From assembly GCA_964587395.1 (NCBI GenBank), contig CAZPMD010000009.1:1507-65506 (forward strand): a stretch of DNA of 64,000 nt, given 5' to 3'. The translations under genes were made by a program, and so were the position numbers. The notes below the pieces were generated by a model, which did no database searches, was not told where the DNA came from, and saw only the letters and a list, made by a program, of their open reading frames with translations. The stretch's first letter is position 1; each line of letters opens with the position of its first letter. This DNA comes from an uncultured Hyphomicrobiales bacterium. GTDB lineage: Bacteria > Pseudomonadota > Alphaproteobacteria > Rhizobiales > Phreatobacteraceae. Shown here piece after piece: positions 28,613 through 51,919 of the stretch.

Positions 28613-28638
28613 GGAACCGCCGGCCTGTTGCGAGCGTT
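28613..28638 (+). promoter_or_regulatory. EcfG-type promoter, exact GGAAC-N17-CGTT
   Basis: cgGGAACcgccggcctgttgcgagCGTTg. The -10 element ends 34 nt before ATG 28673. Confidence 0.6.
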
Positions 28639-28672
28639 GTTCCCCTGACAACGCAACCGAAGGAGACGTGTC

Positions 28673-28759
28673 ATGGGCCTTGGACGTGGTGCTCTCTTGT
28701 GGCTTCTCGGCATTCCCCTGCCGATCATCATCTTGCTGGCCATCTTCTGGGGCAATTGA
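28673..28759 (+). CDS. 28-aa hydrophobic peptide (MGLGRGALLWLLGIPLPIIILLAIFWGN); not in the ORF track
   Basis: ATG preceded by AAGGAGACGTGTC. One TM-like segment. An EcfG-type promoter lies immediately upstream and a hairpin downstream. Confidence 0.5.
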   Translation: MGLGRGALLWLLGIPLPIIILLAIFWGN

Positions 28760-28797
28760 TCAGGCGTAGCGAAGCCCGTCAGCGACAGGCGTGAAGA

Positions 28798-28825
28798 GGC
28801 GGAAGGCAGGTTCCGCCCCTTCTTC
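28798..28825. terminator. Hairpin between the convergent small peptide ORF and HWE kinase gene (candidate bidirectional terminator)
   Basis: GGCGGAA-ggcagg-TTCCGCC followed by CCTTCTTC. Confidence 0.35.
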
Positions 28826-28876
28826 GCGCGTGCTCCACGTTCATACCGAGGACAGGGTCCTGACGGCCCGCCCGGA

Positions 28877-30367: not shown

Positions 30368-30652
30368 TCTGCCTCATGCCGTTGACGGAAATTCTGGCAC
30401 TGTGGGGCAGCCCCTCGGGGTTCCCGGCCGGCGATAGGTGATCGTGGAAGGAGACCAGGGCGTGGAGAGCATGCTCGTGGTCCAACGCTGAGCTCTTACA
30501 TGGGCAGCCAAATCCGGCGCTGGTGAGGCGGTTCCCCGACCATGCGCGGACGGGCCGCAGTCGCAGGGCCTGTCGCGCCAGCAACCCGCACCGGCGGGGG
30601 ACCGGGCGGGTTGCAGAGCGGGCGAGGCGGCAGGAAGCAATGTCTGCCGGCA

Positions 30653-30826
30653 TCAGGCGCGGCGTAGCAGGCCGGCGACGACCGAGACGACGAACAGAAC
30701 GATCGCCACCCAGAACAGCATCTGCGCGCCGCCCATGGCCGTTCCGGCGACGCCGCCGAAGCCGAGGAAGGCCGCGACGAGCGCGACGACGAGAAAAACG
30801 ACGGCCCAGTGCAGAAGGGTACCCAT
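30653..30826 (-). CDS. DUF1328/YtjA-like small membrane protein (57 aa)
   Basis: C-terminal part of ORF 30653..31246(-): [57 protein letters not shown]. The FLGFGG...A motif is typical of the UPF0391 family. Confidence 0.75.
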
Positions 30827-30893
30827 GACGTGCTCCTGATGTGGTTGTGACAGGACCTTTGTGATCCCGGCGACATGGAGATGTCTGGCAATC

Positions 30894-30918
30894 AACGTCG
30901 TCGCCCGACCCAGGTTCC
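30894..30918 (-). promoter_or_regulatory. EcfG-type promoter, exact GGAAC-N16-CGTT (minus strand)
   Basis: Plus strand AACGtcgtcgcccgacccagGTTCC. 67 nt upstream of the DUF1328 ATG 30826. Confidence 0.6.
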
Positions 30919-31144
30919 CTTCAAGGCGGACGGAACTTTCTGCAGGGTCGTGGCGTTTGGGCCATCGCGGGCGCGTCCGGGAATGGACGCCAGTCGGCAT
31001 GCACGGAGTCGGAGAGACGAGACATGACGACTGATCGCCCGCCCCAAGCGGCTGCATACCGCTTACCCGATCGCGTGCCCGCCACGCCGGTCTGCCAGAA
31101 CGGCAGGCGCATCGCGACGTCGCCTGACCAGTCAAAGCGTTGCC

Positions 31145-33640
31145 ATGAGTGACGGCCGCCCCGTGGCGGAGAGGAGCGGGCAGGTCCCGCCACCGCATAC
31201 GCAGGTGCAACGGCAGGACGACGGCGACGAACGCAGGCGGCTTCATGCGCTGCGGGTGCGCCTGCTGCTGCTCGTCGGCGGCATGGCCATCCCGTTGCTG
31301 GTGCTCGCCCTCGGAGCCGTGTGGCAGGCGAACCGCAGCGAGCGGGCGCGGATGGAGACGCGCCTTGTCGAGCAGGCCCGGGCGATCGCCGCCAGCGTCG
31401 ACGGCGAGATGAAACAGGCCGAGGTCTATCTGCGGGCACTGGCCTCATCGCCCTCGCTAGCCAGCGGTGACTGGCTGTCAGTTTACCAGCAGGCGACGAG
31501 GTCGACCCGGCGTGGCACCTTCGTGGCCATTCTGGACGAGCACGGGCGGCGGCTCCTCAACACCTACTTTCCCGTCGGCGCGGGCGGCGTCAGCCTTACC
31601 CAGACGCGGGGCATCGACATCGCCCGTCAGGCGCTGGGCGAGGATCGGCTGGCGATTTCCGGCATCCTGACAGGCGACGCCATTGGCGAATCGGCGGTAG
31701 TGGCCGCGTTGGGAGCAGCGACGCGCTCGGGCCAACGGGTGGTGGTCGCGCTCATCATTCCGTCTGCCGTACTTGCCGGAGCATTGCAGGCGCAAAACCT
31801 GCCAGCCGAGTGGATCTCGGCCATCCTCGACGCCGATGGTCTCGTCACGGCGCGGTCCCGCGACAGCGCGCGCTTCGTCGGAACGCAGGCGATCGCGCCG
31901 GTCCGCCAGGTCCTGGCCACGCAGGCGAGCGGGCTGATCCATGCCCGGACCGTGGAGAATCTGACGGCGAGTCTTGCCGTTGCCCGCGCGCCGGAAAGTC
32001 GGTTCGCGGCGGTCATTGCAATTCCGGAAGCGGTGTTCGGGCGCAGTTTCGGCTCGATGCTCGGGCCGGTCGCCCTGATCGGCATCGGTCTCGTTCTCGC
32101 TGCCATGACCATCGCCATGCTGGCCTCGACCCGGATCCTCGCCGCCGTGCGCCGCGGCTATGCGGAAGAGCGCAGCCTCCGCGACGAGGTGACGGAAAAC
32201 CTGCGTGTCGTGGACGCCGAGCTGCAGCGGAGCGAGCGCCGCTTCCAGACCATCGCCGACGCGATGCCGCAGTTGGTCTGGTCGACGCTGCCCGACGGCT
32301 ACCACGACTATTTCAACCAGCGCTGGTACGAGTTCACGGGGATGACGCCCGGCTCGACCATGGGCGAGGTGTGGAACGATCTGCTCCACCCTGACGACCG
32401 GGCGCGCGCAGCCAGGCGCTGGCAGAATTCGCTCGACACCGGCGAGCCCTACGAGATCGAGTACCGGTTCAAGTCGGCCGATGGTGCCTATCGCTGGTTC
32501 ATCGGCCGCGCCATGCCGATCCGTGACCGCTCGGGGCGGATCGAACGCTGGTTCGGGACCTGCACCGACATTCACGACAAGAAGCTGGCGGAAGAGGCGC
32601 TGGTTGCGGCGCAGGGCCAGCTCAAGGCCCGCGTGGCGGAGCTCGCGCAGGAGAAGGCCCGCCTTGAGCGGCTGATGATCTCGGCGCCGAACCTCATCTT
32701 CATCAACGACCTGAAACGGGGGCGGAACGCCTACATCAACCCGCAGGTCTTCGAGGCACTGGGCTACGGCCCCGCCGAGCTGACGGGACGACCGCTCAAG
32801 GCGCTCGGCGAGCTGGTTCATCCAGAGGACCGCCGGCGCGTCGCCGGGTTCGTCGCGCAGATTCGCCGGGTGGCCGATGGCGAGGTGCGCGAGATCGAAC
32901 ACCGCATGCGCCATGCCGACGGCTCCTATCGCTGGTTCCTGTTCCGGGAGACGCCGTTCCAGCGCGATGCGGCCGGCCAGGTGACGCAGGTCCTCGGTAC
33001 GGCGCTCGACATTGGCGCGCGCAAGCAGGCCGACGAGCGCCAGCAGATGCTGATCCGCGAGTTGCATCACCGGGTGAAGAACATTCTCGCCACCGTGCAG
33101 GCGATCGCGTCGGCGACCGGGCGGTCGTCCCGCTCGTTCGAGGCGTTCCGGCAGGACTTCTCCGAAAGGCTGGTGTCGCTCGGGCGTACCCATTCACTGC
33201 TCACCCGCGAGGCCTGGGCCGGCGCCGGACTGCGCGACATCCTGGAGAGTGAACTCGCTCCCTATCTCGACCCGGCGGACGGGCGGGTTGTGATCGACGG
33301 CCCCGCCCTGGTGATCCCGCGCGACATGACGGTGCCGGTCGGCATGGCGATCCACGAATTGACGACCAATGCGGTGAAATATGGCGCGCTGTCGGTGCCC
33401 GCGGGGCACGTCGACGTCACGATCGAGAGCGACGGGGCGGTGCCGGAGCCCCGCATGACCCTGGTATGGCGCGAGAGCGGCGGGCCGCGGGTCGAGCCAC
33501 CGCAGCGCAAGGGTTTCGGCACGCTGCTGCTCAACCGGTTGCTCGCCTCGCAGCTCGGTGGCGAGGTGGCTATCGACTATCGGCCCGAAGGGGTCGTGGC
33601 GCGCCTGGACGTCGTGCTGCGCAAGGACGATCTGCGCTGA
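31145..33640 (+). CDS. Membrane sensor histidine kinase: periplasmic sensor domain, two PAS domains, HWE/HisKA_2 kinase core
   Basis: 831 aa. TM segments around [20 protein letters not shown] and [23 protein letters not shown] regions ([24 protein letters not shown]). H-box [32 protein letters not shown]. Confidence 0.85.
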
Positions 33641-33689
33641 AAGACGCAGCGCAACCGGCCAGCCCATGATGGAAACTCACGGAGTCTGC

Positions 33690-33714
33690 GGAACGATGCC
33701 GGTCCTGATGCGTT
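33690..33714 (+). promoter_or_regulatory. EcfG-type promoter, exact GGAAC-N16-CGTT
   Basis: gcGGAACgatgccggtcctgatgCGTTc. 39 nt upstream of ATG 33754. Confidence 0.6.
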
Positions 33715-33753
33715 CTTCGATCTGAAAACCACCAGCACAGACAGGAGCCATCC

Positions 33754-34113
33754 ATGCCCACTCCCTCAGGCCATACCCGAGCCATCGTCGCCTCGCGCGT
33801 CACCGGCACCAGCGTCTATAATCCGCAGGGTGAGAAGATCGGCCACGTCGAGGACATCGTTCTCGACAAGATGTCCGACAAGGTGATGTTCGCCGTTCTC
33901 GGCTTCGGCGGTTTCCTCGGCATCGGCGAGCGCTATCACGCCATGCCCTGGTCCATGCTCGACTACGACAAGGAGCGCGGCGGCTATGTCGTGTCCCTCG
34001 CCAGGGAGGTGCTGGAGAAGGCCCCGTCCTACGAGCTCAACGACCTTCTCAAGCAGGACGGCGCCGGCCAGGGTCCCTCGCTCGACTACTATGCGAAGTA
34101 CAGCGTCCACTGA
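33754..34113 (+). CDS. PRC-barrel domain protein (cytoplasmic, 119 aa)
   Basis: VTGTSVYNPQGEKIGHVEDIVLDKMSDKVMFAVLGFGGFLGIGERYHAMPW is a typical PRC-barrel sequence. Confidence 0.8.
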   Translation: MPTPSGHTRAIVASRVTGTSVYNPQGEKIGHVEDIVLDKMSDKVMFAVLGFGGFLGIGERYHAMPWSMLDYDKERGGYVVSLAREVLEKAPSYELNDLLKQDGAGQGPSLDYYAKYSVH

Positions 34114-34165
34114 CCCGCGGCGGCGGTGCGACCGTCCGTCGGTCCTCCCTCTTCCGTTTTCCGAG

Positions 34166-34192
34166 ACGGCGGCCCGCAAGGCCGCCGTTTTG
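34166..34192 (+). terminator. Rho-independent terminator after the PRC-barrel gene
   Basis: ACGGCGGCC-cgcaa-GGCCGCCGT followed by TTTT. Confidence 0.7.
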
Positions 34193-34398
34193 GCGTGCGG
34201 CGCCTAACGAAAGCCAAGCCGATGCAGGAAGAAGTTCCGGCTGCGGGAAGTCGTTCCCGCGAGCACCGCCCGGCGGTCCCGAACTGCGAGGCGCATCCGT
34301 GGAAGATCTGTTCACCAGCGTTCATCTGCTGGCTATCGCGGCCATCGCCTTCGCCGCCCATACTCTCTCCACGGGATGAGGGAGACCCGGGAACTGCA

Positions 34399-35193
34399 AT
34401 GCGTCCGGCGCCCCGGCGGCGCCGCATCATGGTCCCGATGAACGCCTCCTCCGCGGCCTGTGCGGCAGTGGCGATCGTTCTTGCCGCCTCGGGCGTCGGC
34501 ACAGTGGCCGGAGCCCAGTCATTGCCCTCCAGGGCTCCCTTGCCACAAAGCCGGCCTCAGGCCGCCTCACCGCCGGCGGTGGCACCGCAGGCACCTCCGC
34601 TCCCGTCTCCCCGTTCCACGACCCGCTCTCCGGCCGTTGCGGCGTCGGCGTGCCAGGCAAGGCTCGCCGTGACCGGTGTCCGCTTCGCATCAGTCGCGGC
34701 AACGGACCCGCGGGTGGACTGTGCGATCGAGGATCCGGTGCAACTCGACAGCATGGCAACGGATGGCGGCGAGGTCCGCTGGCCCGACCGGCCGATCGTG
34801 AGCTGTTCCTTTGCCGGCATGCTCGCCGACTTCACCCGCGACGTTGCAGAGCCCCTCGCCCGCGCCACGACCGGCCGGGCCATCGCCGCCTTCGGCACCG
34901 GCCCGGGTTTCGCCTGCCGGCCGCGCAACAGGGTCGAGGGGGGCCAGATGAGCGCCCACGGCCGCGGGCTTGCCATCGACATTGCCTGGTTCGAGTTCGC
35001 CGGCGGGCATCGCGAGACTGTCGAGGCGCCGGGAGACGAGAAGGTTGCACGCCTCATCCACGCCTTGCGCCGGTCCGCTTGCGGCTGGTTCACGACGGTT
35101 CTCGGACCCGGGTCGGATGCAGCCCATGTCGATCATCTCCACCTCGACGCGGAGCGCCGCGGGCAGCGTGGCGACAGCCGCCTGTGCCAGTAG
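34399..35193 (+). CDS. Extensin-like C-terminal domain protein (secreted, Pro/Ala-rich linker)
   Basis: ORF 34126..35193 trimmed to MRPAPRRRRIMVPMNASSAACAAVAIVLAASG. C-terminus ...MSAHGRGLAIDIAWFEF...GPGSDAAHVDHLHLD resembles the bacterial extensin-like_C family. Confidence 0.7.
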   Translation: MRPAPRRRRIMVPMNASSAACAAVAIVLAASGVGTVAGAQSLPSRAPLPQSRPQAASPPAVAPQAPPLPSPRSTTRSPAVAASACQARLAVTGVRFASVAATDPRVDCAIEDPVQLDSMATDGGEVRWPDRPIVSCSFAGMLADFTRDVAEPLARATTGRAIAAFGTGPGFACRPRNRVEGGQMSAHGRGLAIDIAWFEFAGGHRETVEAPGDEKVARLIHALRRSACGWFTTVLGPGSDAAHVDHLHLDAERRGQRGDSRLCQ

Positions 35194-35309
35194 GAGCCAC
35201 TGTGGGGGATGTGCCCCGCGCCCCCGCTTCCCATCGTGCCTGCTGTCGCCCACGCGAAAGCCCCGCGCCGGTGGGCGCGGGGCTGACTGGTTCGACGAGA
35301 TGGGTTGCG

Positions 35310-35861
35310 TCAGGTGCGGGCGGGCGCGAAGGTCGGCATGTCCTGCAACTGCTTCTTCGTGCTCGTCACGAAGCCGACCAGCGTGCCGTCAGACATGCGC
35401 ATGAGCTTGATGTCGTTCAGGATCAGGGCGACGTTCTTCTCGCCGATGCCGAGGAAACCGCCGACGCCGAGGATGGCATGCGAGATGCGGCCGTCAGGAC
35501 CGATGACGAGATCGTCGATCGTGCCGATGGAGTCGTGGCGGTCACGCATGGTGCGCCACTGCTCGTCGCTCACCGGCGTCACGGCCATGGCGGGCGCGGC
35601 CGGGGTTGAGCCGGTGGTCATCGGTGCAGCCGTGCCCGTCGAGGCCTGGCCCGGCTTCGGCGCATAGACCGAGATGCCGACGATCTTGCCAGTGGTCAGC
35701 TGATGCGCGCCCATCTCCGTCGCTGCCGGGGTTGCCGGACGCATGGGCTGGGTCTGCACCGGAGAAGCCGGCTGCTGCGGCGTCGGTGCCGCCGTCTGGG
35801 CCATCACGCCGGTGGCGAGAAGGGTCGCGACGGATGCCGTCAAAAGAGTGGTCCTGATCAT
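35310..35861 (-). CDS. Secreted PRC-barrel domain protein with a Pro/Thr/Ala-rich N-terminal region
   Basis: ORF 35310..35975(-) trimmed to MIRTTLLTASVATLLATGVMAQ (CAGGAGGCAACTGCC SD). C-terminal IGTIDDLVIGPDGRISHAILGVGGFLGIGEKNVAL PRC-barrel motif. Confidence 0.75.
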   Translation of the reverse strand: MIRTTLLTASVATLLATGVMAQTAAPTPQQPASPVQTQPMRPATPAATEMGAHQLTTGKIVGISVYAPKPGQASTGTAAPMTTGSTPAAPAMAVTPVSDEQWRTMRDRHDSIGTIDDLVIGPDGRISHAILGVGGFLGIGEKNVALILNDIKLMRMSDGTLVGFVTSTKKQLQDMPTFAPART

Positions 35862-35942
35862 GGCAGTTGCCTCCTGTCTGGAAAACCAGCGCGATGGATG
35901 CCGCCTCAGGCAAGATCCGAAGCATCGCGCTGTTGCCATGAC

Positions 35943-35967
35943 AACTGTCCGGGCGGCCCGTTGTTCC
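35943..35967 (-). promoter_or_regulatory. Near-consensus EcfG-type promoter GGAAC-N16-AGTT (minus strand)
   Basis: Plus strand AACTgtccgggcggcccgttGTTCC. 81 nt upstream of ATG 35861. One mismatch in the -10 element (A for C). Confidence 0.35.
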
Positions 35968-36005
35968 GGCGGCAATCGTCGGATTCGGCCGGTGACGACA
36001 TGTAT

Positions 36006-36902
36006 TTAGCCGGCGTCACGAATATCGTTGATGGCCTGCCAGTGCTGCCGGCGGTACTCGGCCGACTGCGGGAAGCGCTCGCCTTCCACCTCCTCGGTGA
36101 TCACGGTGAAGCGCGCCAGGGTATGCGGGCCGAAGGAATTGACGAAGGGCACGTCCGCCGCGTCACGTCCCCGTGCCACGACGATCCGGCCAATCCTAGG
36201 CCGGTTGTGCCGGGCATCGAAGGCGTACCAGGTTCCGTCGAGATAGACTTCGAACCAGGCGCTGAAATCCATGGGATTGGGATCCACCGGCACGCCGATG
36301 TCGCCGAGATAGCCGGTGCAGTAGCGGGCTGGAATGTTGAGGCAGCGACACAGGGTAACGGCGAGATGGGCGAAGTCCCGGCAGACGCCGGCACGCTCCT
36401 GCAGGGCCTCGGCGGCGGTGCGGGTGTGGCGGGCCGCCATGTAATCGAAGCGGATATGGCCATTCACGAAGTCGCAGACGGCCTGGACCTGCTCCCAGCC
36501 AGGACGCAGACCTGAAAAATTGTTCCAGGCAACCGACATCAGGCTGTCGGTCTCGCAATAGCGGCTGCCCAGCAGAAAACTCAGCGTCTCCGGTGGGAGC
36601 GCGTCGGGGGGCATGACCGTCGCCCAGGGCGCCACGGGATCGGGAAAGCCGGAATCGTGGATCTTCCCTTCGGCCGAGAGGCGCACGCCGCCTGCCGGAA
36701 CGGTGATGCGCCGGCAGATGTTGCCGAAGCCGTCGATATAGATCTCCGTCGGGCAGGGCGCCCCCGTCGCGAGCGAAGACGCGGCCATGATGTCAGGTTC
36801 AGAGATGTCGGTACGCCGGTCGGGATGGACGTCGAGCATCAGGATCGCCGGCAGGGTCTGGTCGCAGACGATCTCGATGTCGTAGCCGTAGCGGATATGC
36901 AT
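36006..36902 (-). CDS. Transglutaminase-like (Bact_transglu_N + transglutaminase core) family protein, copy 1; Ser at the expected catalytic His position
   Basis: ORF 36006..36932(-). ATG 36902 has a GAAGGAG SD. MHIRYGYDIEIVCDQ N-terminal domain. Core GVCRDFAHL ... DFSAWFEVYLDGTWYAFDARHN. Confidence 0.8.
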   Translation of the reverse strand: MHIRYGYDIEIVCDQTLPAILMLDVHPDRRTDISEPDIMAASSLATGAPCPTEIYIDGFGNICRRITVPAGGVRLSAEGKIHDSGFPDPVAPWATVMPPDALPPETLSFLLGSRYCETDSLMSVAWNNFSGLRPGWEQVQAVCDFVNGHIRFDYMAARHTRTAAEALQERAGVCRDFAHLAVTLCRCLNIPARYCTGYLGDIGVPVDPNPMDFSAWFEVYLDGTWYAFDARHNRPRIGRIVVARGRDAADVPFVNSFGPHTLARFTVITEEVEGERFPQSAEYRRQHWQAINDIRDAG

Positions 36903-36974
36903 CGGTGGTCTCCTTCGCAGGGATGCGGACATCCGGCCGCATCCGCCGGGCGCGGCAGCTGATCATGATCGGTG

Positions 36975-36999
36975 AACGCCACGCTTGGCCAGCGGTTCC
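36975..36999 (-). promoter_or_regulatory. EcfG-type promoter, exact GGAAC-N16-CGTT (minus strand)
   Basis: Plus strand AACGccacgcttggccagcgGTTCC. 72 nt upstream of ATG 36902. Confidence 0.6.
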
Positions 37000-37234
37000 T
37001 TGCTCGCAGGTGAGCATTCCGCGCGATCAGAGAAAGGTCCGCTGTGTCAGGTCGCGGTCGTACCGGGCGGCGCTCCGTTCGGTGAGATGCGGGTTATCGA
37101 GGGTCGGCGGCCGGCCGAGCCGCGGGCAGGCGTGGCACCAGCGGTGGGTGGTGCCGGGCAGCGTCCTATTCGCGATCATGGGTCCCCTCGGCCTGCGTCC
37201 GCCGGAAAATATGCTGGCGCGACGATCCGCGCAG

Positions 37235-37259
37235 GGAACTCGCGGGCCGCGGTCGCGTT
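37235..37259 (+). promoter_or_regulatory. EcfG-type promoter, exact GGAAC-N16-CGTT
   Basis: cagGGAACtcgcgggccgcggtcgCGTTc. 86 nt upstream of ATG 37346. Back-to-back with the 36975-36999 promoter. Confidence 0.6.
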
Positions 37260-37345
37260 CCGTCCCCTGGCTCTCCTGATGCATTCCGCTGCCGCCGGCG
37301 CGGTGTGGCAGGCCGGGCAAGCTCCACCCGCGCGGAAACCTCTCC

Positions 37346-39151
37346 ATGTCCTCTTCCGAACCCGATGTCGTCGACCGGCCCTACCGGTCGCGATCGCGAT
37401 CCTTCCTGCGCATGGCAACCGGCTTCTGGACGGGGTTCTCCGGGGTACGGGCCTGGCTGCTGACCATCGTGGTTCTCGGCTTCGCCTTCGCGCAGATTGC
37501 GGCGCAGGTCGGCATCAACAGCTGGAACCGCATGTTCTTCGACGCGCTCGAGAAGAAGGAGATCGGCGACGTCGTCACCGCCATCAGCCTCCTGCCGCTG
37601 CTCGTTGGCGTTGCGGCGATCACCATGTCCGGGCTCGTCGTCTCGCGCATGCTGCTGCAGGTGCGTTGGCGCGAGTGGGTCACGCACCGGCTGGCGGGAT
37701 GGTGGATCGCCGACCAGCGCTACTATCGCCTGGGCTTCCTGGCCACGGAGCATTCGGCACCGGAGTTCCGTATCGCCGAGGACGTGCGCATCTCCACCGA
37801 GCCGCTGGTGGAATTCGCCATCGGACTGATATCGGCCCTGGTCACAGCTCTCACCTTCGCGGCCATCCTCTGGACCGTGGCCGGATCCATCACCTTCGAG
37901 ATCGCCGGACGGACGGCCCTCATCCCCGCCTATATGGCGATCGCCGCGGTTCTCTATGCCGTCATCGCCTCGACGACCGCCTACTATGTCGGTCGCGCGC
38001 TGGTGGGAAGGATCGCCACCAAGAACGAGACGGAGGCGCTGTTCCGCGCCGAGATGACACGGCTGCGCGAGAATGCCGAGAGCATCGCGCTGATCAAGGG
38101 CGACGCGGACGAGCGGTCCTCGGTCAAGGACACATATTCAAACGTCGTCCGGGCTTGGATGGCGGTCGTCCGCCGGCAGGGCTTCATCGCGCTGGTGCTC
38201 AACACCAATGGCGCGCTCTTTCCAATCGTGCCGCTGCTGCTGGTGGCGCCGAAATACCTGTCGGGCGAACTGACGCTCGGCGCCGTCATGCAGGTCGCCG
38301 CCGCCTTCAGCGCCGTGCAGGCGGCGCTCATCTGGTTCGTCGACAATTTCGTGCGCCTGTCCGAATGGTACGCCTCGGTGGTGCGCGTCGACGAGTTCGT
38401 CGAGACCCTGGAAGAGGTCGATATCGGCACGATCATGGAGGACGAGCAGCAGATCAGGCTAGGCGAGAGCGATGACGACACCATCCAGATCGACAATCTG
38501 TCGCTCGCCCACCGCAACGGCCGGGTCGTCATCGACGATGCGTCCATCCGCATCCAGCCCGGAGAAAAGATCCTCATCGCCGGGGAGAGCGGCACCGGCA
38601 AGAGCACGTTCATCCGCGCGCTCGCGGGGCTCTGGCCCTGGGGCTCGGGGAGCATCGCCTTCCCGCGCAACACCCCTCATGCCTTCGTGCCGCAGAAGCC
38701 CTACCTGCCGCGCGGCACATTGAAGGACACGCTGATCTACCCCGAAAGCGGGGCTCAACTGGACGAGGCGGTCATCCTGCAGGCCATGGAGCGCTGCGGG
38801 CTCGGTTATCTGGCGAAGCGCCTCAACGAGGAGGACGACTGGGATCGCGTCCTGTCCGGCGGCGAGCGCCAGCGCGTCGCCTTCTGCCGCCTGCTCATCC
38901 ACAAGCCGCCGATCATCATCATGGACGAGGCGACCGCAGCGCTCGACGAGGGCAGCCAGGACAGCCTGCTCTCCCTGTTCGAGAACGAGCTCGCCGCCTC
39001 GACGCTGATCAGCGTCGGACATCGTCCCGGGCTCGAGAGATTCCACGACCGCAAGATCACCCTCGTGCGGCGCCCCGCCGGTGCACGCATGCAGTCGACG
39101 CCGATCCGCAAGTCGATCTGGCGGCTTCTCAGCGGGGGCGAGGTGGCCTGA
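37346..39151 (+). CDS. Fused permease/ATPase ABC half-transporter of the ABCD / YddA / SbmA-BacA-related type
   Basis: 601 aa. N-terminal 5-6 TM region of ABC_membrane_2 style (NSWNRMFFDALEKK, QRYYRL). C-terminal NBD with GESGTGKST, LSGGERQRVAFCRLL and IIIMDEATAALD. Confidence 0.85.
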   Translation: MSSSEPDVVDRPYRSRSRSFLRMATGFWTGFSGVRAWLLTIVVLGFAFAQIAAQVGINSWNRMFFDALEKKEIGDVVTAISLLPLLVGVAAITMSGLVVSRMLLQVRWREWVTHRLAGWWIADQRYYRLGFLATEHSAPEFRIAEDVRISTEPLVEFAIGLISALVTALTFAAILWTVAGSITFEIAGRTALIPAYMAIAAVLYAVIASTTAYYVGRALVGRIATKNETEALFRAEMTRLRENAESIALIKGDADERSSVKDTYSNVVRAWMAVVRRQGFIALVLNTNGALFPIVPLLLVAPKYLSGELTLGAVMQVAAAFSAVQAALIWFVDNFVRLSEWYASVVRVDEFVETLEEVDIGTIMEDEQQIRLGESDDDTIQIDNLSLAHRNGRVVIDDASIRIQPGEKILIAGESGTGKSTFIRALAGLWPWGSGSIAFPRNTPHAFVPQKPYLPRGTLKDTLIYPESGAQLDEAVILQAMERCGLGYLAKRLNEEDDWDRVLSGGERQRVAFCRLLIHKPPIIIMDEATAALDEGSQDSLLSLFENELAASTLISVGHRPGLERFHDRKITLVRRPAGARMQSTPIRKSIWRLLSGGEVA

Positions 39152-39195
39152 CAGAAAGCGGAGTCGTTTCCTGGCGAGGGGCGGGAACCATAGCG

Positions 39196-39220
39196 GGAAC
39201 CATTCCACGCGAGGAGCGTT
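39196..39220 (+). promoter_or_regulatory. EcfG-type promoter, exact GGAAC-N16-CGTT, with a tandemly duplicated -35 region
   Basis: gcgGGAACcattccacgcgaggagCGTTg, preceded by the direct repeat gcgggaaccat (39181-39191 and 39193-39203). Confidence 0.55.
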
Positions 39221-39226
39221 GATGGA

Positions 39227-39297
39227 GCGATCATCGCACGTCCCTTCCCGCGATGTGGACCTCTCCACTCAAGCCGCCTCTGGCGGCTTCTTTTTTT
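39227..39297 (+). ncRNA. Candidate EcfG-dependent small RNA or 5' attenuator (about 70 nt, ends approximate)
   Basis: Directly downstream of the 39196-39220 promoter there is a C/U-rich tract (cccttccc). A hairpin GTGGA-CCTC-TCCAC follows at 39254-39267, then an intrinsic terminator at 39270-39297. The next gene's ATG is at 39354. Confidence 0.3.
39270..39297 (+). terminator. Rho-independent terminator-like hairpin with a U-tract
   Basis: AAGCCGCC-tct-GGCGGCTT followed by CTTTTTTT. Lies 119 nt after the ABC transporter stop and 57 nt before the next ATG. Confidence 0.65.
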
Positions 39298-39353
39298 CAC
39301 CAGGTCCGGGTGCGAAGCTGTGTCGAAGCGCGCCCCGGAGTTTGACGGCCACG

Positions 39354-40235
39354 ATGGATCTGCACCTGCGTCACGTCACGACCTATCAGTATGCGGGGCC
39401 GGTCCAGTTCGGCCCCCACCGGCTGATGCTTCGCCCGCGCGACAGCTTCGACCTGCGCATCCTCGATACGCAGCTGGACATCTTCCCGAACGCCGAGCTG
39501 CACTGGTCGCATGACGTCTATGGCAACCCGATCTGCGTCGCGACCTTCGCCGGGATGGCGGACAGGCTCGAGATCACGTCGGGCCTCGTGCTGCGCCGCT
39601 ATGCCTCCGCCTTTCCGCGCGCCCATACGATGGCCGGTGCAGCCTTCGCTCCCCACTACACCGATGGCGAACGCATCGTGCTGCAGCCCTTCCTGGTCCC
39701 CGCCAGCGGCGACGAGGGCGGGGTGCTCGCCGCCTGGACCGCAGCGGCCCTTTCAGGCGAAGCGCAGGACCTCGATCCGCTGAGCCGCCTGTCGCGGGCC
39801 ATCCATGCCGGCTTCGGCTACGCGGCGCGCTACGAGGAGGGCACCCAGACGCCGGCGCAGACGCTGAACCTGAGGTCCGGCTCCTGCCGGGATCTCGCCT
39901 GGCTGTTCATCGAGGCGGTCAGGCGGCGCGGCTATGCGGCGCGCTTCGTGACCGGCTATCTGCACGACGGCCGCGCCGCCGACCCGTCGTACCGCTCGGT
40001 CGCCGGCCTGACCCATGCCTGGGCCGAGGTCTTCATTCCCGGCGACGGCTGGGTGGAGTTCGATCCCACCAACGCGCTCGTCGCCGACCCGCATCTGATC
40101 CGTGTCGCGGTGGCGCGGGTGCCATGGGATGCGTCGCCTGTGTCGGGCAGCTTCATCGGCCCGGTCGGCGCCCTCATCAGCCTGTCCGTCGGCGTCGATA
40201 TCGCGCCGACGGAGAGCTACGCGAGCGTCGCCTGA
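39354..40235 (+). CDS. Transglutaminase-like (Bact_transglu_N + transglutaminase core) family protein, copy 2, with an intact Cys-His-Asp pattern
   Basis: ORF 39081..40235 trimmed to MDLHLRHVTTYQYAGPVQFGPHRLMLRP. Core GSCRDLAWL ... THAWAEVFIPGDGWVEFDPTN. Confidence 0.8.
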   Translation: MDLHLRHVTTYQYAGPVQFGPHRLMLRPRDSFDLRILDTQLDIFPNAELHWSHDVYGNPICVATFAGMADRLEITSGLVLRRYASAFPRAHTMAGAAFAPHYTDGERIVLQPFLVPASGDEGGVLAAWTAAALSGEAQDLDPLSRLSRAIHAGFGYAARYEEGTQTPAQTLNLRSGSCRDLAWLFIEAVRRRGYAARFVTGYLHDGRAADPSYRSVAGLTHAWAEVFIPGDGWVEFDPTNALVADPHLIRVAVARVPWDASPVSGSFIGPVGALISLSVGVDIAPTESYASVA

Positions 40236-40242
40236 GCAGGCA

Positions 40243-41895
40243 TCAGAGAGGGATGGTCCAGCGCCCAGAGCTGGCGCCGTCCGGCCACTCCGTCTGCGTC
40301 GCGCCGATCTGGCGCAGCAGGCCGACAGCAACCTTGGTGTTGACGGCGCCGGCGCGGCGGTGATCCGTGGCGACGTCGAGCGTCAGGCTGTCGCCGCCCG
40401 ATCCGGTGCTGATCCTGACCGACACGCTGTCCGCCTCATCCTCCTGCAGCGCATGCGACGCAAGCTCGACGACGAGCAGTCCCAGGGGAATGGCGCGATC
40501 GACCACCAGGGCGGCATCGTCCGGAGCGGTGGCGGTGATCCAGGGGCGGCCGGGCTGGAGCAGGCCGTTGAGCATGGCCGCCACCTCGTCGAGGAAGGGC
40601 TTCAGTTCGACGGGCCGCATCTCGCCCTGGGCGAGGGCGTGGCGATAGGCGATCGACAGCACGTGGACCTTCGCCTCGACCGCTGCCAGGACCGGTCGGT
40701 GTTCCGTGCCGTGCTGTCGGCGCGCCAGGCTGAGATAGCTCTGGATCACCTGAAGGCTGTTCTTCACGCGATGATGCAGTTCGCGCACGAGGTGGCGGTT
40801 GGCGCCGATCGTCTGGTTGAGCCGCTCCACGCGGCCAGCCTGGTCGATGACCAGCGTGTTGAAGGCCTCTGAGACCCGGCGGATGTCCTGGGGCATGGCG
40901 GGATCGACCGGCGCGAGTTTGGCCTCGTGCGAGCTTCGCGCCACCGCCGCCGCCTCGATGCCGCGGATCCAGCGCACGATGTTGGCGTCGATGGCCAGCG
41001 AGTAGACCGCGAAGAGCACCATCAGGGTGACAAGCGGTGTGAGAAGAAGCGCGATGAACTGGAGGAACGCGGCCCGCTCGGCCTGCTGGTCGAAACGCGC
41101 GAGGACATAGAGGTCCGGCTCGGCGACCCGCTGCATGCCGTAGGTCGCCGTCTGTCCTGCACGGCTGACGGCCTCCCAGCGCTGCAACTCGCCGGTGTTG
41201 CGCCCCTCCAGGGGAAGCCAACTCATGTCGGATTCGTCCGCGCCACGCGCCGCCACGACGTCGGAACTGCCGCGGACGATGCCGACGATGACACCGGGGT
41301 TGACCACACCCAGTTCGAAGGCGCGATCCATGATGACGGAATCGACGAGCAGCAGGGATTCGAGAACCTGGGTCTGCGGACCGCTGTTGCGGCGCGCATA
41401 GATGACCATGAACCGGCGCTGCCCGATCTGCGTGACACCGTAGCTGGCCTCGGCGAGATCGCTGCCGATCCACGTGCTGCTGCGGCTGCGGGTCCGATAG
41501 TCCTCGACGATACCGACGAGCACGGCCTCGCTGAGCTCCGCGGTCTGTCCCGCCATGCATCCGGGACGATCCCCCGCGCTGAGCGCGATGGCGCTGATCC
41601 CGATGTTGTCGCCGACGATGCGCCGGGCGATGGCGCGGCACTGCTCGGGCGAGGCATCCGTGGCCGCGACGCTCGCCGTCGCGGCCAGGAGCACCCTGAG
41701 CGATTCCCGGAACCAGACGCGGGTCCGGACCGCGAAGTTTCCCACCGTCTGCGACTGCGACGTCTCGATCGAGGAGAGGACCGAGCGATAGGTCGCGGTC
41801 GCCGTCACCGCCGTGATGACGGCGATGGGCAGGATCACCAGGACCATCAGGGCGAGGAGGCGGCCCCGGACGGTGCGGAATACGGTGACATTCAT
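40243..41895 (-). CDS. Membrane HWE/HisKA_2 sensor histidine kinase encoded in the nepR-ecfG operon (PhyK-like position)
   Basis: ORF 40243..42390(-) trimmed to MNVTVFRTVRGRLLALMVLVILPIAVI (ATG 41895, 5 nt after the ecfG stop). Two TM segments flank a periplasmic domain. H-box [20 protein letters not shown]. Confidence 0.85.
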   Translation of the reverse strand: MNVTVFRTVRGRLLALMVLVILPIAVITAVTATATYRSVLSSIETSQSQTVGNFAVRTRVWFRESLRVLLAATASVAATDASPEQCRAIARRIVGDNIGISAIALSAGDRPGCMAGQTAELSEAVLVGIVEDYRTRSRSSTWIGSDLAEASYGVTQIGQRRFMVIYARRNSGPQTQVLESLLLVDSVIMDRAFELGVVNPGVIVGIVRGSSDVVAARGADESDMSWLPLEGRNTGELQRWEAVSRAGQTATYGMQRVAEPDLYVLARFDQQAERAAFLQFIALLLTPLVTLMVLFAVYSLAIDANIVRWIRGIEAAAVARSSHEAKLAPVDPAMPQDIRRVSEAFNTLVIDQAGRVERLNQTIGANRHLVRELHHRVKNSLQVIQSYLSLARRQHGTEHRPVLAAVEAKVHVLSIAYRHALAQGEMRPVELKPFLDEVAAMLNGLLQPGRPWITATAPDDAALVVDRAIPLGLLVVELASHALQEDEADSVSVRISTGSGGDSLTLDVATDHRRAGAVNTKVAVGLLRQIGATQTEWPDGASSGRWTIPL

Positions 41896-41900
41896 CGCGA

Positions 41901-42461
41901 TCAGGTACGCGCCATGTCTGCAGGGGACTGGTGGATGACAGCGGCGGTCCGGCGATCCGGCCCGATCTCGTCGACGCCGGTGATGCCCAGGAGATCGGCG
42001 AGCTTGGCGCGTGCGCGATTGACCCGGCTCTTGATCGTGCCGACGGCGACGCCGCAGATCTCCGCCGCCTCCTCGTAGGACAGGCCGCTGGCGCCGACCA
42101 TGATCAGCACCTCGCGATGTTCCTCCGAAAGCTTGGCGAGCGCCTTGCGGAAATCGGCGAGATCGAGCGCGCTTTCCTGTTCGCCCGACACGGTGAGGCG
42201 CTGGGCATAGGTTCCGTCGCTGTCCTGCACCTCGCGGCCACGCTTGCGGTAGAGCGAGTAGTAGGTGTTGCGCAGGATGGTGAACAGCCAGGCGCGCAGG
42301 CTCGTCCCCGGCTGGAACTTCTCGGAATTGCCCCAGGCCTTCAGCATGGTCTCCTGCACGAGGTCGTCGGCCTGCGTGACCGAGCCGCACAGGGAGACGC
42401 CGAAGGCGCGCAGGTTCGGCAACTCCGCAATCAGGCCTTCGCGGAACTCGTCACTGGGCAT
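41901..42461 (-). CDS. ecfG: ECF sigma factor EcfG (general stress response sigma)
   Basis: ORF 41901..42491(-). ATG 42461 is preceded by AAGGAGCGTCGCA. LVQETMLKAWGN (region 2) and LSYEEAAEICGVAVGTIKSRVNRAR (region 4). Immediately after nepR and divergent from phyR. Confidence 0.9.
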   Translation of the reverse strand: MPSDEFREGLIAELPNLRAFGVSLCGSVTQADDLVQETMLKAWGNSEKFQPGTSLRAWLFTILRNTYYSLYRKRGREVQDSDGTYAQRLTVSGEQESALDLADFRKALAKLSEEHREVLIMVGASGLSYEEAAEICGVAVGTIKSRVNRARAKLADLLGITGVDEIGPDRRTAAVIHQSPADMART

Positions 42462-42648
42462 TGCGACGCTCCTTGGCTTCGAGTTCGGCAAGGAGAACGA
42501 GGAAGCGATCGGGCATCGGCGCCTTGATGAGGTCGTCGTAATGGGCCTTCAGCGATTTGCCGATGGCCTCCTGGATGCGCGGGTCAAGGACGATGTCCCT
42601 GTCGTCGTCCTTCCGGTCCTTGTCGTTGTTGTCCCGAATCTCACCCAT
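42451..42648 (-). CDS. nepR: Anti-sigma factor NepR
   Basis: 65 aa. ...IQEAIGKSLKAHYDDLIKAPMPDRFLVLLAELEAKE matches the NepR core. Overlaps the ecfG start by 11 nt. Confidence 0.88.
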   Translation of the reverse strand: MGEIRDNNDKDRKDDDRDIVLDPRIQEAIGKSLKAHYDDLIKAPMPDRFLVLLAELEAKERRNAQ

Positions 42649-42697
42649 CGACCTCTCCTCGCGTACCTTTTGGAGGCGCGCACCTGATCCAACCCAG

Positions 42698-42722
42698 AAC
42701 GCCCCTTTCCGGCATTGGTTCC
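42698..42722 (-). promoter_or_regulatory. EcfG-type promoter, exact GGAAC-N16-CGTT (minus strand); autoregulatory promoter of nepR-ecfG
   Basis: Plus strand AACGcccctttccggcattgGTTCC. 49 nt upstream of the nepR ATG 42648. Confidence 0.7.
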
Positions 42723-42800
42723 CGGAAAATGGAAAAATAAAAAACTTGCCAAAACAAGGGGTTCCGGGCTGCTCTTGGCGTCATTCGACAGGAGTCTAGA

Positions 42801-43598
42801 ATGACCATTGCTGCGGAAATTGCCCCGCATCTCCCCTATCTGCGCCGCTTCGCCCGTGCCCTCAGCGGCACGCAGGCCGGCGGTGATTCCTATGTGCTGG
42901 CGACGCTCGAGACGCTGGTGGCCGATCCTTCCTCCTTCCCGAGAGACGTGTCCGCCCGCATCGCCTTGTATCGGATCTTCCTCAAGCTCTGGTCGTCCAT
43001 GCCAGTGAACATGTCGCAGCCGACGACCATGCTGGTTCGTGCCGGCGCTGTGGAGCGCAATCTCGAAGCGCTGACGCCGATCTCCCGGCAGGCGTTCCTG
43101 CTCAGGACGGTCGAAGGTTTCTCTGTGGAAGAAGTGGCCGGCGTCCTCAACGTTGACCTCGATCGGGCCGGAGCCCTCATCCAGCAGGCCGGACGCGAGA
43201 TCGCCGAACAGGTGGCGACCGACGTCCTCATCATCGAGGACGAACCGATCATCGCGCTCGACATCGAGACGCTGGTCCAGGAACTCGGCCACTCGGTCAC
43301 CGGCATCGCCCGGACCCACAAGGAGGCCGTCGCCCTCGTCGCGAAGAAGCGCCCGGGTCTCGTCCTCGCCGATATCCAACTGGCCGATGGTTCGTCAGGG
43401 CTGGAGGCGGTCGCGGAGATCCTGGAGAGCATCGACCTGCCGGTCATCTTCATCACGGCCTATCCGGAGCGCCTGCTCACCGGCGAGCGGCCGGAACCGG
43501 CCTTCCTGATCACCAAGCCGTTCCAGCCGGAGGCGGTCAAGGCGGCGATCAGCCAGGCGCTGTTCTTCGACCGCCGGTCGGAGCGGAAGGTGGCCTGA
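42801..43598 (+). CDS. phyR: PhyR anti-anti-sigma response regulator (sigma-like domain + receiver)
   Basis: 265 aa. N-terminal HLPYLRRFARALSG... ECF-sigma-like domain. C-terminal receiver VLIIEDEPIIALDI...LVLADIQLADGSSG...ITKPF. Confidence 0.92.
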   Translation: MTIAAEIAPHLPYLRRFARALSGTQAGGDSYVLATLETLVADPSSFPRDVSARIALYRIFLKLWSSMPVNMSQPTTMLVRAGAVERNLEALTPISRQAFLLRTVEGFSVEEVAGVLNVDLDRAGALIQQAGREIAEQVATDVLIIEDEPIIALDIETLVQELGHSVTGIARTHKEAVALVAKKRPGLVLADIQLADGSSGLEAVAEILESIDLPVIFITAYPERLLTGERPEPAFLITKPFQPEAVKAAISQALFFDRRSERKVA

Positions 43599-43615
43599 CC
43601 GGGGCCGCCCGGTCA
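43596..43615 (+). terminator. Hairpin overlapping the phyR stop codon (TGACCGGG-gccg-CCCGGTCA)
   Basis: Perfect 8-bp stem. Only a weak T-tract downstream (gcgattttcc). Confidence 0.4.
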
Positions 43616-43640
43616 GAAGGCGATTTTCCCCGGACCTTGG

Positions 43641-43665
43641 GGAACCTTGACCGGGGATGCCGGTT
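43641..43665 (+). promoter_or_regulatory. Near-consensus EcfG-type promoter (GGAAC-N15-CGGTT, i.e. GGAAC-N18-TT)
   Basis: ggGGAACcttgaccggggatgcCGGTTg. About 50 nt upstream of ATG 43715. Confidence 0.35.
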
Positions 43666-45846: not shown

Positions 45847-46902
45847 CTATGCCATCCGCGCCGCTGTGCTCGCCCGCCTTCGGGTCTTCCACAGGCTGTA
45901 GATCACGCCGCCGGCCAGAAGGCCGAGAGTGACCGTCAGTGACAGGACCGGGGGCAGCTTGTCGATGCCCATGAGGTCCGCGGCGAAGACCTTGCCGCCG
46001 ATGAAGACCAGGACGAGGGCCAGCGCCGTCTTGAGATAGTGGAAGCGATGCATCATGGCGGCGAGGGCGAAATAGAGGGCCCGCAGGCCCAGGATGGCGA
46101 AGATATTCGACGTGTAGACGATGAAGGGGTCCGTGGTGATGGCGAAGATCGCCGGCACCGAATCGACCGCAAATATAACGTCGGCGATCTCGATGAGAAC
46201 CAGGGCCATGAACAGCGGCGTCATGAACCAGACGCTGCGGCCGCTATCCGGCGCCTTGGGATCCGGCAATTTCACGAAGAACTTCTCGCCGTGATGCTCC
46301 TGCGTCACGTTGAAGCGCCGGCGCATGAAGGCGAGGACGGGGTTGGTGGAGATGTCGGTCTTGCCCTCCTTGAACACCAGCATCTTGATGCCGGTGGCGA
46401 CGAGGAAGGCGGCGAAGATGGTGAGGACCCAGGAGAACTGAGAGACCACCGCCGCGCCGACGCCGATCATGATGGCGCGCAGCACGATGACGCCGAGGAT
46501 GCCCCAGAACAGCACCCGGTGCTGGTATTTCCGCGGCACCGCGAAGAAGGAGAAGATCATCGCGATGACGAAGACGTTGTCCATCGCCAGCGCCTTCTCG
46601 ACCGCGAAGCCGGTGAGGTAGTTCATGCCGGATTCGGCGCCCAGCGCCCACCAGACCCAGACGCCGAAGGCGACGCCGAGCGAGATGTAGATGGCGGATA
46701 GAAGGAGGCTCTCGCGTGTCCCGATGTCGCGGTGCCCCCTGTGGAGCACGCCGAGGTCGAGGGCGAGCAGTGCGATGACGATGGCGAAGAAGGCGAGCCA
46801 CATCCAGACCGGCTTGGTCAGCCAGACGGAGAACACGAAGGTGCTGAGAAGTTCCATGACCGGACCCATTCTCTCGAGGTTGACGAGATAATCCGACATC
46901 AT
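45847..46902 (-). CDS. TerC/Alx-family integral membrane protein
   Basis: 351 aa. YLTGFAVEKALAMDNVFVIAMIF and AVDSVPAIFAIT TerC motifs. Its stop is 12 nt before the sbtA start. Confidence 0.85.
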   Translation of the reverse strand: MMSDYLVNLERMGPVMELLSTFVFSVWLTKPVWMWLAFFAIVIALLALDLGVLHRGHRDIGTRESLLLSAIYISLGVAFGVWVWWALGAESGMNYLTGFAVEKALAMDNVFVIAMIFSFFAVPRKYQHRVLFWGILGVIVLRAIMIGVGAAVVSQFSWVLTIFAAFLVATGIKMLVFKEGKTDISTNPVLAFMRRRFNVTQEHHGEKFFVKLPDPKAPDSGRSVWFMTPLFMALVLIEIADVIFAVDSVPAIFAITTDPFIVYTSNIFAILGLRALYFALAAMMHRFHYLKTALALVLVFIGGKVFAADLMGIDKLPPVLSLTVTLGLLAGGVIYSLWKTRRRASTAARMA

Positions 46903-47034
46903 GGCGGGACGCCATCAGAGGGGCCCGGATCGCGGCGGAAGACGCCGCAGGACTGTGGCGACAATCGGGCAGTGCGGCGTGGCTGCGACCAACCGCCTCA
47001 GGATGTGTGACGGACGCAGGGGCGATCGGGGGGC

Positions 47035-51844: not shown

Positions 51845-51919
51845 TGGAGCGGGAGAAGGGATTCGAACCCTCGACCCCAACCTTGGCAAGGTTGTGCTCT
51901 ACCCCTGAGCTACTCCCGC
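51845..51919 (-). tRNA. tRNA-Gly (anticodon GCC)
   Basis: Minus strand GCGGGAGTAGCTCAGGGGTAGAGCACAACCTTGCCAAGGTTGGGGTCGAGGGTTCGAATCCCTTCTCCCGCTCCA. Cloverleaf with anticodon loop CTTGCCAAG, T-loop GGTTCGAATCC and encoded CCA. Confidence 0.93.

Follow-up and report, generated by a model that had tools for sequence, protein, structure and literature searches.

A conserved intergenic element with an EcfG-type promoter, a candidate small RNA gene beside the general stress response locus of Phreatobacter-like bacteria

The intergenic element and its conservation

The subject of this work is a short intergenic element in a 64-kb stretch (the window) of contig CAZPMD010000009.1, from an uncultured bacterium of the Phreatobacteraceae. 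It lies on the plus strand at positions 39196 to 39297, between the genes for an SbmA/BacA-like ABC transporter and a transglutaminase-like protein (TGase), and 2.6 to 3.5 kb from nepR-ecfG and phyR, which belong to a core general stress response (GSR) locus spanning 41901 to 43598 (Table 1). Its promoter, terminator, conservation pattern, fold, synteny, and noncoding nature are computational results and are described below. We think it probable that the element is an independent gene for an EcfG-dependent, trans-acting small RNA (sRNA) of about 70 nucleotides (nt), GsrN-like in kind and carrying CU-rich anti-Shine-Dalgarno seeds. A first-pass annotation of this DNA had offered such an sRNA as the first of two alternatives, and that alternative is favored by the conservation of the hexamers and of the RNA body, by single-copy synteny, and by adjacency to the GSR locus.

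Table 1. Features of the element and of the surrounding genes, in window coordinates
Feature	Position	Strand	Remarks
SbmA/BacA-like ABC transporter gene	37346-39151	+	Pfam ABC_membrane_2, SbmA_BacA, ABC_tran; stop TGA 39149-39151
-35 element	39196-39200	+	GGAAC, EcfG-type, read in the sequence; invariant in 16 of 16 orthologous variants
Promoter spacer	39201-39216	+	16 nt; length kept, sequence not
-10 element	39217-39220	+	CGTT; GGTT in some relatives (GTT invariant, first base C or G)
Predicted sRNA transcript	39227-39297	+	about 69 to 71 nt; predicted start 39227-39229
Stem 1, 5' arm	39232-39237	+	CAUCGC; pairs with 39250-39255; 5 of 6 pairs invariant
Stem 1, loop	39238-39249	+	12 nt, ACGUCCCUUCCC; holds CU-rich CCCUUCCC (39242-39249), candidate seed 1
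Stem 1, 3' arm	39250-39255	+	GCGAUG; pairs with 39232-39237
GUGGA-CCUC-UCCAC hairpin	39255-39268	+	5 base pairs in the window; weakly conserved elsewhere
Candidate seed 2	39257-39264	+	GGACCUCU; anti-Shine-Dalgarno-like; invariant except for the first G
Intrinsic terminator	39271-39297	+	8-base-pair stem AAGCCGCC/GGCGGCUU, loop UCU, then C and U7
Transglutaminase-like (TGase) gene	39354-40235	+	Pfam Bact_transglu_N, Transglut_core; 293 amino acids
HisKA_2 kinase	within reading frame 40243-42390	-	frame ends just before ecfG
ecfG	41901-42491	-	Pfam Sigma70_r2/r4
nepR	42451-42648	-	Pfam NepR
EcfG motif of nepR-ecfG	42698-42722	-	motif scan
phyR	42801-43598	+	Pfam PhyR_sigma2, PhyR_sigma-like, Response_reg

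The exact EcfG-type promoter that the first-pass annotation had placed at 39196 to 39220 is present, and its GGAAC and GTT are invariant in the 16 orthologous variants described below. The window has 8 occurrences of GGAAC-N16-17-CGTT where 0.51 would be expected, and none of 100 shuffled sequences reached 8. The copy at 39196 is the only EcfG-type motif in the window, including those with a relaxed -10 element, that has a terminator within 220 nt downstream. That terminator, also recognized earlier as strong, has 8 pairs and starts at 39271, one base later than had been proposed (39270). Its DNA reads AAGCCGCC-TCT-GGCGGCTT from 39271 to 39289 and continues as C and T7 to 39297. The terminator scan called it as an intrinsic terminator, with 6 G-C pairs among the 8 and a 3-nt loop. 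The stem is invariant among relatives and almost the same in Bosea, the next clade (PhyR 76% identical), and the terminator probably also ends the upstream ABC gene. At 39181 to 39204 the -35 region is present in tandem, as two copies of GCGGGAACCAT lying 12 nt apart; the upstream GGAAC (39184) lacks a suitably spaced -10 element. In one relative (L082), a second GGAAC lies within the promoter spacer.

Plain nhmmer and blastn searches with the element against 80 PhyR-anchored loci returned almost nothing, and homologues were recovered only via synteny, protein-anchored look-ups, and a degenerate DNA pattern. The look-ups, together with one scan of metagenomes with that pattern, gave 16 distinct variants from Phreatobacter-like genomes and metagenomes. 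Five of the 13 matches in the metagenome scan (L098, L099, L100, L104, and L106) were chance occurrences inside coding DNA and were discarded. All 16 variants lie between the same ABC and TGase genes, with one copy per locus, and the TGase proteins beside them are 70 to 97% identical to that of the window. Two MAFFT alignments (A1 and A2) misaligned the group of L086, L093, and L096, and a model-guided alignment was used in their place: a covariance model was made from 13 variants, and all 16 were then aligned to it in a structure-aware manner. Applied to the window, the model matched 39227 to 39296 with 98.9 bits and found no second copy. A lack of conservation in relatives had been named at the outset as one of the observations that would refute the sRNA proposal, and these 16 orthologous variants show that the element is conserved.

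The conservation is sharply partitioned along the element. Mean pairwise identity among the 16 variants is 100% for the -35 element, 42% for the promoter spacer, 88% for the -10 element, and 32% for the 8 nt from the -10 element to the conserved block; it is 88% for the RNA body to the end of the U-tract and 40% for the 17 nt of 3' flank past it. This profile bears on the plainest alternative, in which the element is only the terminator of the ABC gene and the GGAAC-N16-CGTT motif and CU tract arose by chance. The terminator lies 120 nt past the ABC stop and is surely able to end the ABC mRNA, stems of the GCCGCC/GGCGGC type are common in GC-rich alphaproteobacteria, and a terminator scan of a 1.5-kb stretch was at chance level (1 found, 0.5 expected). 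However, GGAAC and GTT are invariant at fixed spacing in all 16 variants, while the spacer and surroundings fall to 32 to 42% identity, and the 44 nt from the start to the terminator are conserved as much as the terminator itself. We therefore regard a terminator without an sRNA as very unlikely. The footprint is that of a promoter plus a constrained predicted transcript, with conservation spanning the predicted start (about 39227 to 39229) to the end of the U-tract. Because conservation is bounded at the predicted start and stop and the flanks are essentially randomized, a fortuitous promoter beside a plain terminator is excluded. As we read the alignment, comparative conservation is the decisive evidence that the element is more than a chance arrangement.

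The predicted RNA, its fold, and candidate targets

The predicted start at 39227 to 39229 was chosen because it lies 7 to 9 nt after the -10 element and because conservation sets in at GATCATCGC (39229). The 71-nt RNA has a folding energy of -24.3 kcal/mol (z = -4.1 relative to shuffled sequences). RNAalifold on the model-guided alignment gave stem 1, a 3-base-pair mini-hairpin around ACCUCU, and a terminator of 9 base pairs. Stem 1 is part of the minimum free energy fold in L082, L086, L090, and L093, and its outer C-G pair is replaced by U-A in L086, L093, and L096, where two extra pairs are gained. The C/U-rich stretch seen in the first-pass annotation corresponds to the loop tract CCCTTCCC at 39242 to 39249, which is invariant except for CCCTGCCC in L089 and has an unpaired probability of 0.86 to 1.0 in the window RNA. 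In seed 2, 16 of 16 variants have GACCTCT, and two of them, L107 and L090, have A instead of G just before it. Both the CCUC core and the CCCUUCCC tract were unpaired in all folds examined.

The first-pass annotation had drawn attention to a GTGGA-CCTC-TCCAC hairpin at 39254 to 39267. The hairpin is present in the window, one base downstream of that location, but it keeps only about three weak pairs in relatives, where stem 1 is conserved instead. RNAalifold likewise gave it 3 pairs only, with G-U wobbles and breaks, and its 3' arm varies (UCAC, UUAC, UUCAC, UUUCC, and UCCAA), whereas its 5' half, GGACCUCU, is invariant as sequence; the hairpin was thus only partly kept and was rejected as the key structure. 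A GCGA-UCA-UCGC hairpin, the 5' hairpin of the minimum free energy fold of the window RNA, was also rejected as a conserved structure, as its 5' bases vary (CC, TC, AC, AT, and GT) and sequences of the L086 clade do not allow it. From the aligned sequences, the RNA is best described as having a predicted 5' hairpin that displays CU-rich seed 1, a U-tailed terminator at the other end, and between the two a segment of weak structure that carries CU-rich seed 2.

A mode of action can be proposed from these features and from the established PhyR-NepR-EcfG partner-switching model. Under stress, phosphorylated PhyR would sequester NepR and EcfG would be freed. RNA polymerase with EcfG would bind GGAAC-N16-CGTT, initiate at about 39227 to 39229, and stop at the intrinsic terminator at 39271 to 39297. 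The RNA would fold into a 6-base-pair 5' hairpin with a 12-nt loop exposing CCCUUCCC, a largely unstructured part with GGACCUCU, and the terminator hairpin with its U-tail. It would then pair in trans with mRNA leaders or ribosome-binding sites and form a posttranscriptional arm of the GSR, as GsrN does in Caulobacter. Both CU-rich motifs complement G-rich, Shine-Dalgarno-like sequence, and base-pairing in trans is therefore the most likely mode. Hfq typically binds RNA 3' ends formed by a terminator hairpin and a U-tail; here the fit to an Hfq-dependent sRNA is one of architecture alone, consisting of single-stranded CU-rich seeds and a U-tailed terminator. Action in trans, the direction of regulation, the involvement of Hfq, and the targets of the sRNA are all inferred from sequence.

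Seed-based target prediction, which had been suggested with the first-pass annotation, gave no convincing target within the window. The seed-complement motifs GGGAAGGG and AGAGGTC occur there at counts near the expectation for 64 kb, with no convincing site among them. A duplexfold ranking of the neighboring genes was uninformative, with GC-rich sequences of 46 and 60 nt pairing at a mean of about -27 kcal/mol in the background. One match stood out locally: GACCUCUCC of the sRNA is perfectly complementary to 9 nt (GGAGAGGUC) over the Shine-Dalgarno sequence of nepR, at 42650 to 42658 on the minus strand, and the GACCUCUCC-nepR duplex has an energy of -20.7 kcal/mol, which is matched by 0.2% of random sites. 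As a conserved target, nepR was rejected, since six relatives keep only the GGAGA core and their duplex energies are within background (fractions of 0.11 to 0.44). The nepR pairing is thus a window-specific lead and not a finding. It would fit a model in which the sRNA is itself part of the stress switch, blocking translation of NepR, an anti-sigma factor, and thereby providing posttranscriptional positive feedback on the GSR, a model that we consider improbable.

The transglutaminase gene and the stress response neighborhood

The element and the TGase gene are on the same strand, with 56 nt from the U-tract to the TGase ATG, and the element might be the 5' leader of that gene rather than a gene of its own. 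The EcfG promoter would then serve the gene at 39354, the terminator would act as a constitutive or regulated attenuator, and the short RNA would be a by-product, or the element would be an sRNA and a leader at once. The element is always upstream of a TGase gene, including in Bosea L008, which lacks the ABC gene, and two loci without the TGase gene (L006 and L007) are also without the element. The TGase gene has no recognizable promoter of its own: no sigma-70-like site was recognized in 38500 to 40000, and no other EcfG motif precedes the gene. Given this lack and the co-occurrence with the element, some expression by read-through is plausible.

The second alternative of the first-pass annotation, a terminator/antiterminator leader gating the TGase gene, found no counterpart in the RNA. 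No stretch of at least 5 nt in the RNA body complements either terminator arm, and the best competing duplexes have energies of -5.2 and -7.4 kcal/mol compared with -14.2 kcal/mol for the terminator. No segment thus competes with the terminator arms, and an antiterminator switch is therefore absent. The terminator is strong (8 base pairs and U7) and invariant, whereas the stretch from the terminator to the ATG is unconserved (40% identity), and in Bosea L004 the corresponding spacer, lengthened to about 160 nt, contains a large, unrelated inverted repeat. There was no match to a cis-regulatory family of Rfam, and 88% conservation of the loop and linker motifs would be needless for a plain leader. 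In the window fold, the sRNA 5' end pairs with the start codon of the TGase gene; this pairing was also considered and rejected, because it is not kept and the start contexts differ in relatives. A TGase leader, alone or combined with an sRNA role, is, in our judgment, unlikely, although it is the most serious of the competitors to an sRNA gene. In a related reading, the same promoter and terminator may yield both an sRNA and, by read-through, the TGase mRNA; if such a dual function were true, the stable ABC-element-TGase synteny would reflect a functional couple.

The ATG at 39253 could in principle start a small peptide or an N-terminally longer TGase. Gene callers do start the TGase gene inside the element in L081 (3011 to 3994) and L093 (6001 to 6984), giving models of 327 amino acids, and the TGase frame is open upstream to 39081. 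However, in the window the ATG at 39253 is out of frame with that at 39354, 101 nt away, and it has no Shine-Dalgarno sequence on its 5' side. The elements of relatives contain 1- and 2-nt indels, with no frame kept, and a terminator lies inside the would-be open reading frame (ORF). In addition, Pfam Bact_transglu_N begins at residue 3 of the 293-amino-acid TGase protein. The 34-residue N-terminal extension in L081 and L093, starting from an ATG in the sRNA (GCGATG), is very likely a misannotation, and a coding function for the element is scarcely credible.

Several observations nevertheless weigh against an independent EcfG-dependent sRNA and temper our preference for it. The start site, the size of the RNA, and its EcfG dependence in vivo are deductions from sequence features; no target was identified within the window; and, as noted above, the TGase gene is left without a promoter that we can recognize. 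Covariation support is thin because the remaining pairs of stem 1 never vary; the one compensatory pair represents one evolutionary event, and as many covarying pairs are reached by 239 of 500 shuffles, which makes their number unexceptional. For the window RNA, the optimum combines the GCGA-UCA-UCGC 5' hairpin with the GUGGA/UCCAC hairpin at -23.3 kcal/mol, a local fold 2.9 kcal/mol better than that with stem 1 (-20.4 kcal/mol). In Bosea, the -10 element deviates from the consensus in L001, L002, and L003, and the CU-rich loop is absent in L001.

The sRNA candidate lies in a region rich in EcfG-type promoters. Exact motifs are at 28613 (+), 30918 (-), 30932 (+), 33690 (+), 36999 (-), 37235 (+), 39196 (+), and 42722 (-), and a motif with a relaxed -10 element, at 43641 (+), lies directly 3' of phyR. 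The exact motifs precede genes for a PAS-HWE kinase, a PRC-barrel protein, two TGase-like proteins, the ABC transporter, and nepR-ecfG; the motif at 36999 is in front of the second TGase-like gene, and that of the ABC gene spans 37235 to 37259. From this motif cluster, the part of the window from 28613 to 43665 looks like a GSR regulon island.

Several further observations were made in the neighborhood. The 5' leader of nepR (42660 to 42695, minus strand) begins with a strongly conserved CUGGGUUGGAUCAG right after the -10 element of nepR-ecfG, which is found at the same place in L082 to L092. Just 5' of the annotated start of the ABC gene, at 37338 to 37348, is ACCTCTCC, which is identical, not complementary, to part of sRNA seed 2; there is no Shine-Dalgarno sequence at that place, and the ABC gene may in fact start at another position than annotated. 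The nearest named relatives of the TGase protein are from species of Phreatobacter (65 to 78% identity), a genus of the family Phreatobacteraceae in the order Hyphomicrobiales. Metagenome proteins match it at up to 91% identity, and a tblastn match in L097 is 97% identical.

Comparison with known small RNAs

A search of the whole window with Rfam 15 (4,227 models, including AbcR, alpha-r14, and riboswitches) at the gathering threshold gave only a tRNA and a terC motif, both elsewhere. The terC RNA motif (RF03067) is at 46884 to 46936 on the minus strand, upstream of the minus-strand ORF 45847 to 46902, with 49.9 bits against a gathering threshold of 39.9; the tRNA gene (RF00005, 69.7 bits) is at 51848 to 51919, also on the minus strand. 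A permissive scan of 39100 to 39400 gave nothing better than E = 0.84. The Rfam comparison recommended in the first-pass annotation thus returned no family match to the element: the best score, 15.4 bits, was with suhB/MmgR (RF00519), and membership was rejected on this score (gathering threshold of 41 bits, E = 0.84), the match being kept as a weak resemblance. The general architecture is familiar all the same. Alphaproteobacterial sRNAs, AbcR, MmgR, and NfeR1 among them, usually have unpaired CU-rich anti-Shine-Dalgarno motifs as seeds and pair, aided by Hfq, with ribosome-binding sites (PMC7143759); the element would probably act in the same way. MmgR/SuhB (RF00519, alpha-r8), AbcR1/2, and NfeR1/alpha-r14 have a hairpin, an unpaired CU-rich anti-Shine-Dalgarno motif, and a terminator, as in the element, and MmgR, at 77 nt, is close to it in size. 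In contrast to what is predicted for the element, neither SuhB nor NfeR1 is EcfG driven: a LysR-type regulator controls SuhB in Sphingopyxis, where the SuhB regulon is largely apart from the GSR, and NfeR1 has a sigma-70 promoter.

In Bosea, the syntenic position holds an EcfG-motif-driven small ORF of about 95 codons and, directly after its stop, a second GGAAC-N16-CGTT motif; L004 and L008 have the exact motif, and L001 to L003 have a degenerate one. The small ORF (MLNDSLAPIKRA...) lies between the ABC gene and the sRNA-like element at about 5630 to 6300 in L001 to L004 and L008, and neither the window nor the Phreatobacter-like relatives have it. Downstream of the second motif there is a hairpin of 4 to 6 base pairs with a CU-rich loop (UCCCUC, UCCUC, or UACCCCU) and a terminator nearly that of the window. 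The covariance model scored the Bosea elements at 33.4, 23.0, 21.6, and 20.0 bits, with much of each score coming from the terminator. The family thus probably extends to Boseaceae in a shorter form, resembling there a 3'-untranslated-region sRNA with its own promoter. Such type I sRNAs are represented in enterobacteria by MicL and DapZ. As in those cases, the promoter of the candidate Bosea sRNA comes right after the stop of the small ORF, with a terminator shared with that gene, whereas the element in the window has no small ORF and stands alone in an intergenic gap. MicL and DapZ depend on sigmaE or other regulators, and their sequences are unrelated to that of the element.

Other sRNAs are tied to EcfG-type sigma factors. 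In Sinorhizobium meliloti, 23 sRNAs with predicted RpoE2 promoters have been listed, and 8 intergenic regions had array support (Schlueter et al. 2013, PMC3616915). These RpoE2 (EcfG) sRNAs, compared here by description only, form a trans-encoded class with GGAAC-N16-CGTT-type promoters, as in the element, but unlike the element none is described at an ABC/TGase locus.

The closest parallel is GsrN of Caulobacter crescentus, a sigmaT-dependent sRNA of about 100 nt that Hfq stabilizes and that works via a C-rich 5' loop (Tien et al. 2018, eLife, PMC5869019). GsrN is processed to a 5' isoform of 51 to 54 nt and activates katG, with six tandem C residues as its seed (PMC5869019). Its homologues in other Caulobacteraceae adjoin ecfG-nepR-phyR, and its BLASTn matches are confined to that family (PMC5869019). 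The same study recognized GsrN-like sRNAs by a near-consensus EcfG site, a location close to ecfG-phyR, and a C-rich loop left exposed, along with intergenic GSR-dependent transcription, and it proposed that EcfG-regulated sRNAs beside the GSR locus are widespread, with predictions in Rhizobiaceae, Brucella, Rhodopseudomonas, and Bradyrhizobium (Fig. 9 in PMC5869019). The element has all three sequence-based features, namely, an EcfG-type promoter, a position near the GSR locus, and an exposed CU-rich loop in a 5' hairpin, and its proximity to ecfG-nepR-phyR also holds in relatives. The comparison with GsrN made in the first-pass annotation was therefore apt, as judged by the features used in PMC5869019. 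GsrN and the element have in common a sigmaT/EcfG-type promoter, a 5' hairpin with an exposed C-rich loop, and an intrinsic terminator; they differ in that GsrN is about 100 nt with a six-C seed, whereas the element would encode an RNA of about 70 nt with a CU-rich CCCUUCCC loop and a second motif, GGACCUCU. By promoter, position, and loop, the element is of the GsrN type, but its homology to GsrN proper is doubtful.

Units of an EcfG motif, a C-rich tract (for example, CCCCUCCC), and a terminator, 90 to 135 nt in length, also adjoin other GSR loci, mostly convergent with phyR. We found them in Rhizobium/Agrobacterium (L047, L058, L062, L072, L075, and L079), in Xanthobacteraceae/Pseudolabrys (L073 and L077), and at L035, L051, L054, and L070. 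Two loci were rejected as homologues of the element. L070 (19.4 bits) has an EcfG motif and a C-rich loop, but its alignment rests mostly on the terminator, and L033 (18.5 bits) has no EcfG motif. The units of the kind in Fig. 9 of PMC5869019 have the same three features as the element and come from the same order, Hyphomicrobiales. They lie just downstream of phyR on the opposite strand and are 90 to 135 nt long, whereas the element, which is shorter, is found on the phyR strand upstream of the TGase-kinase-ecfG block. These units are missed by the covariance model of the element, which thus gives no support for a common descent.

It is well supported that the element represents a previously undescribed sequence family, in Phreatobacter-like bacteria, of a known kind, the EcfG-dependent sRNA beside the GSR locus. 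The gene prediction is solid, and it reveals no new mechanism. The GSR is well understood at the PhyR-NepR-EcfG switch, and to our knowledge experiments on its posttranscriptional arm have essentially been confined to GsrN in Caulobacter. With whole genomes, the CCCUUCCC and GGACCUCU seeds make target prediction and mutational tests straightforward, and a new Rfam family could be started from the alignment and covariance model. Beside GsrN and the predicted rhizobial units, the element adds a sharply delimited and strongly conserved candidate in Phreatobacteraceae, and it supports the view that EcfG-driven sRNAs beside the GSR locus are a class-wide feature.

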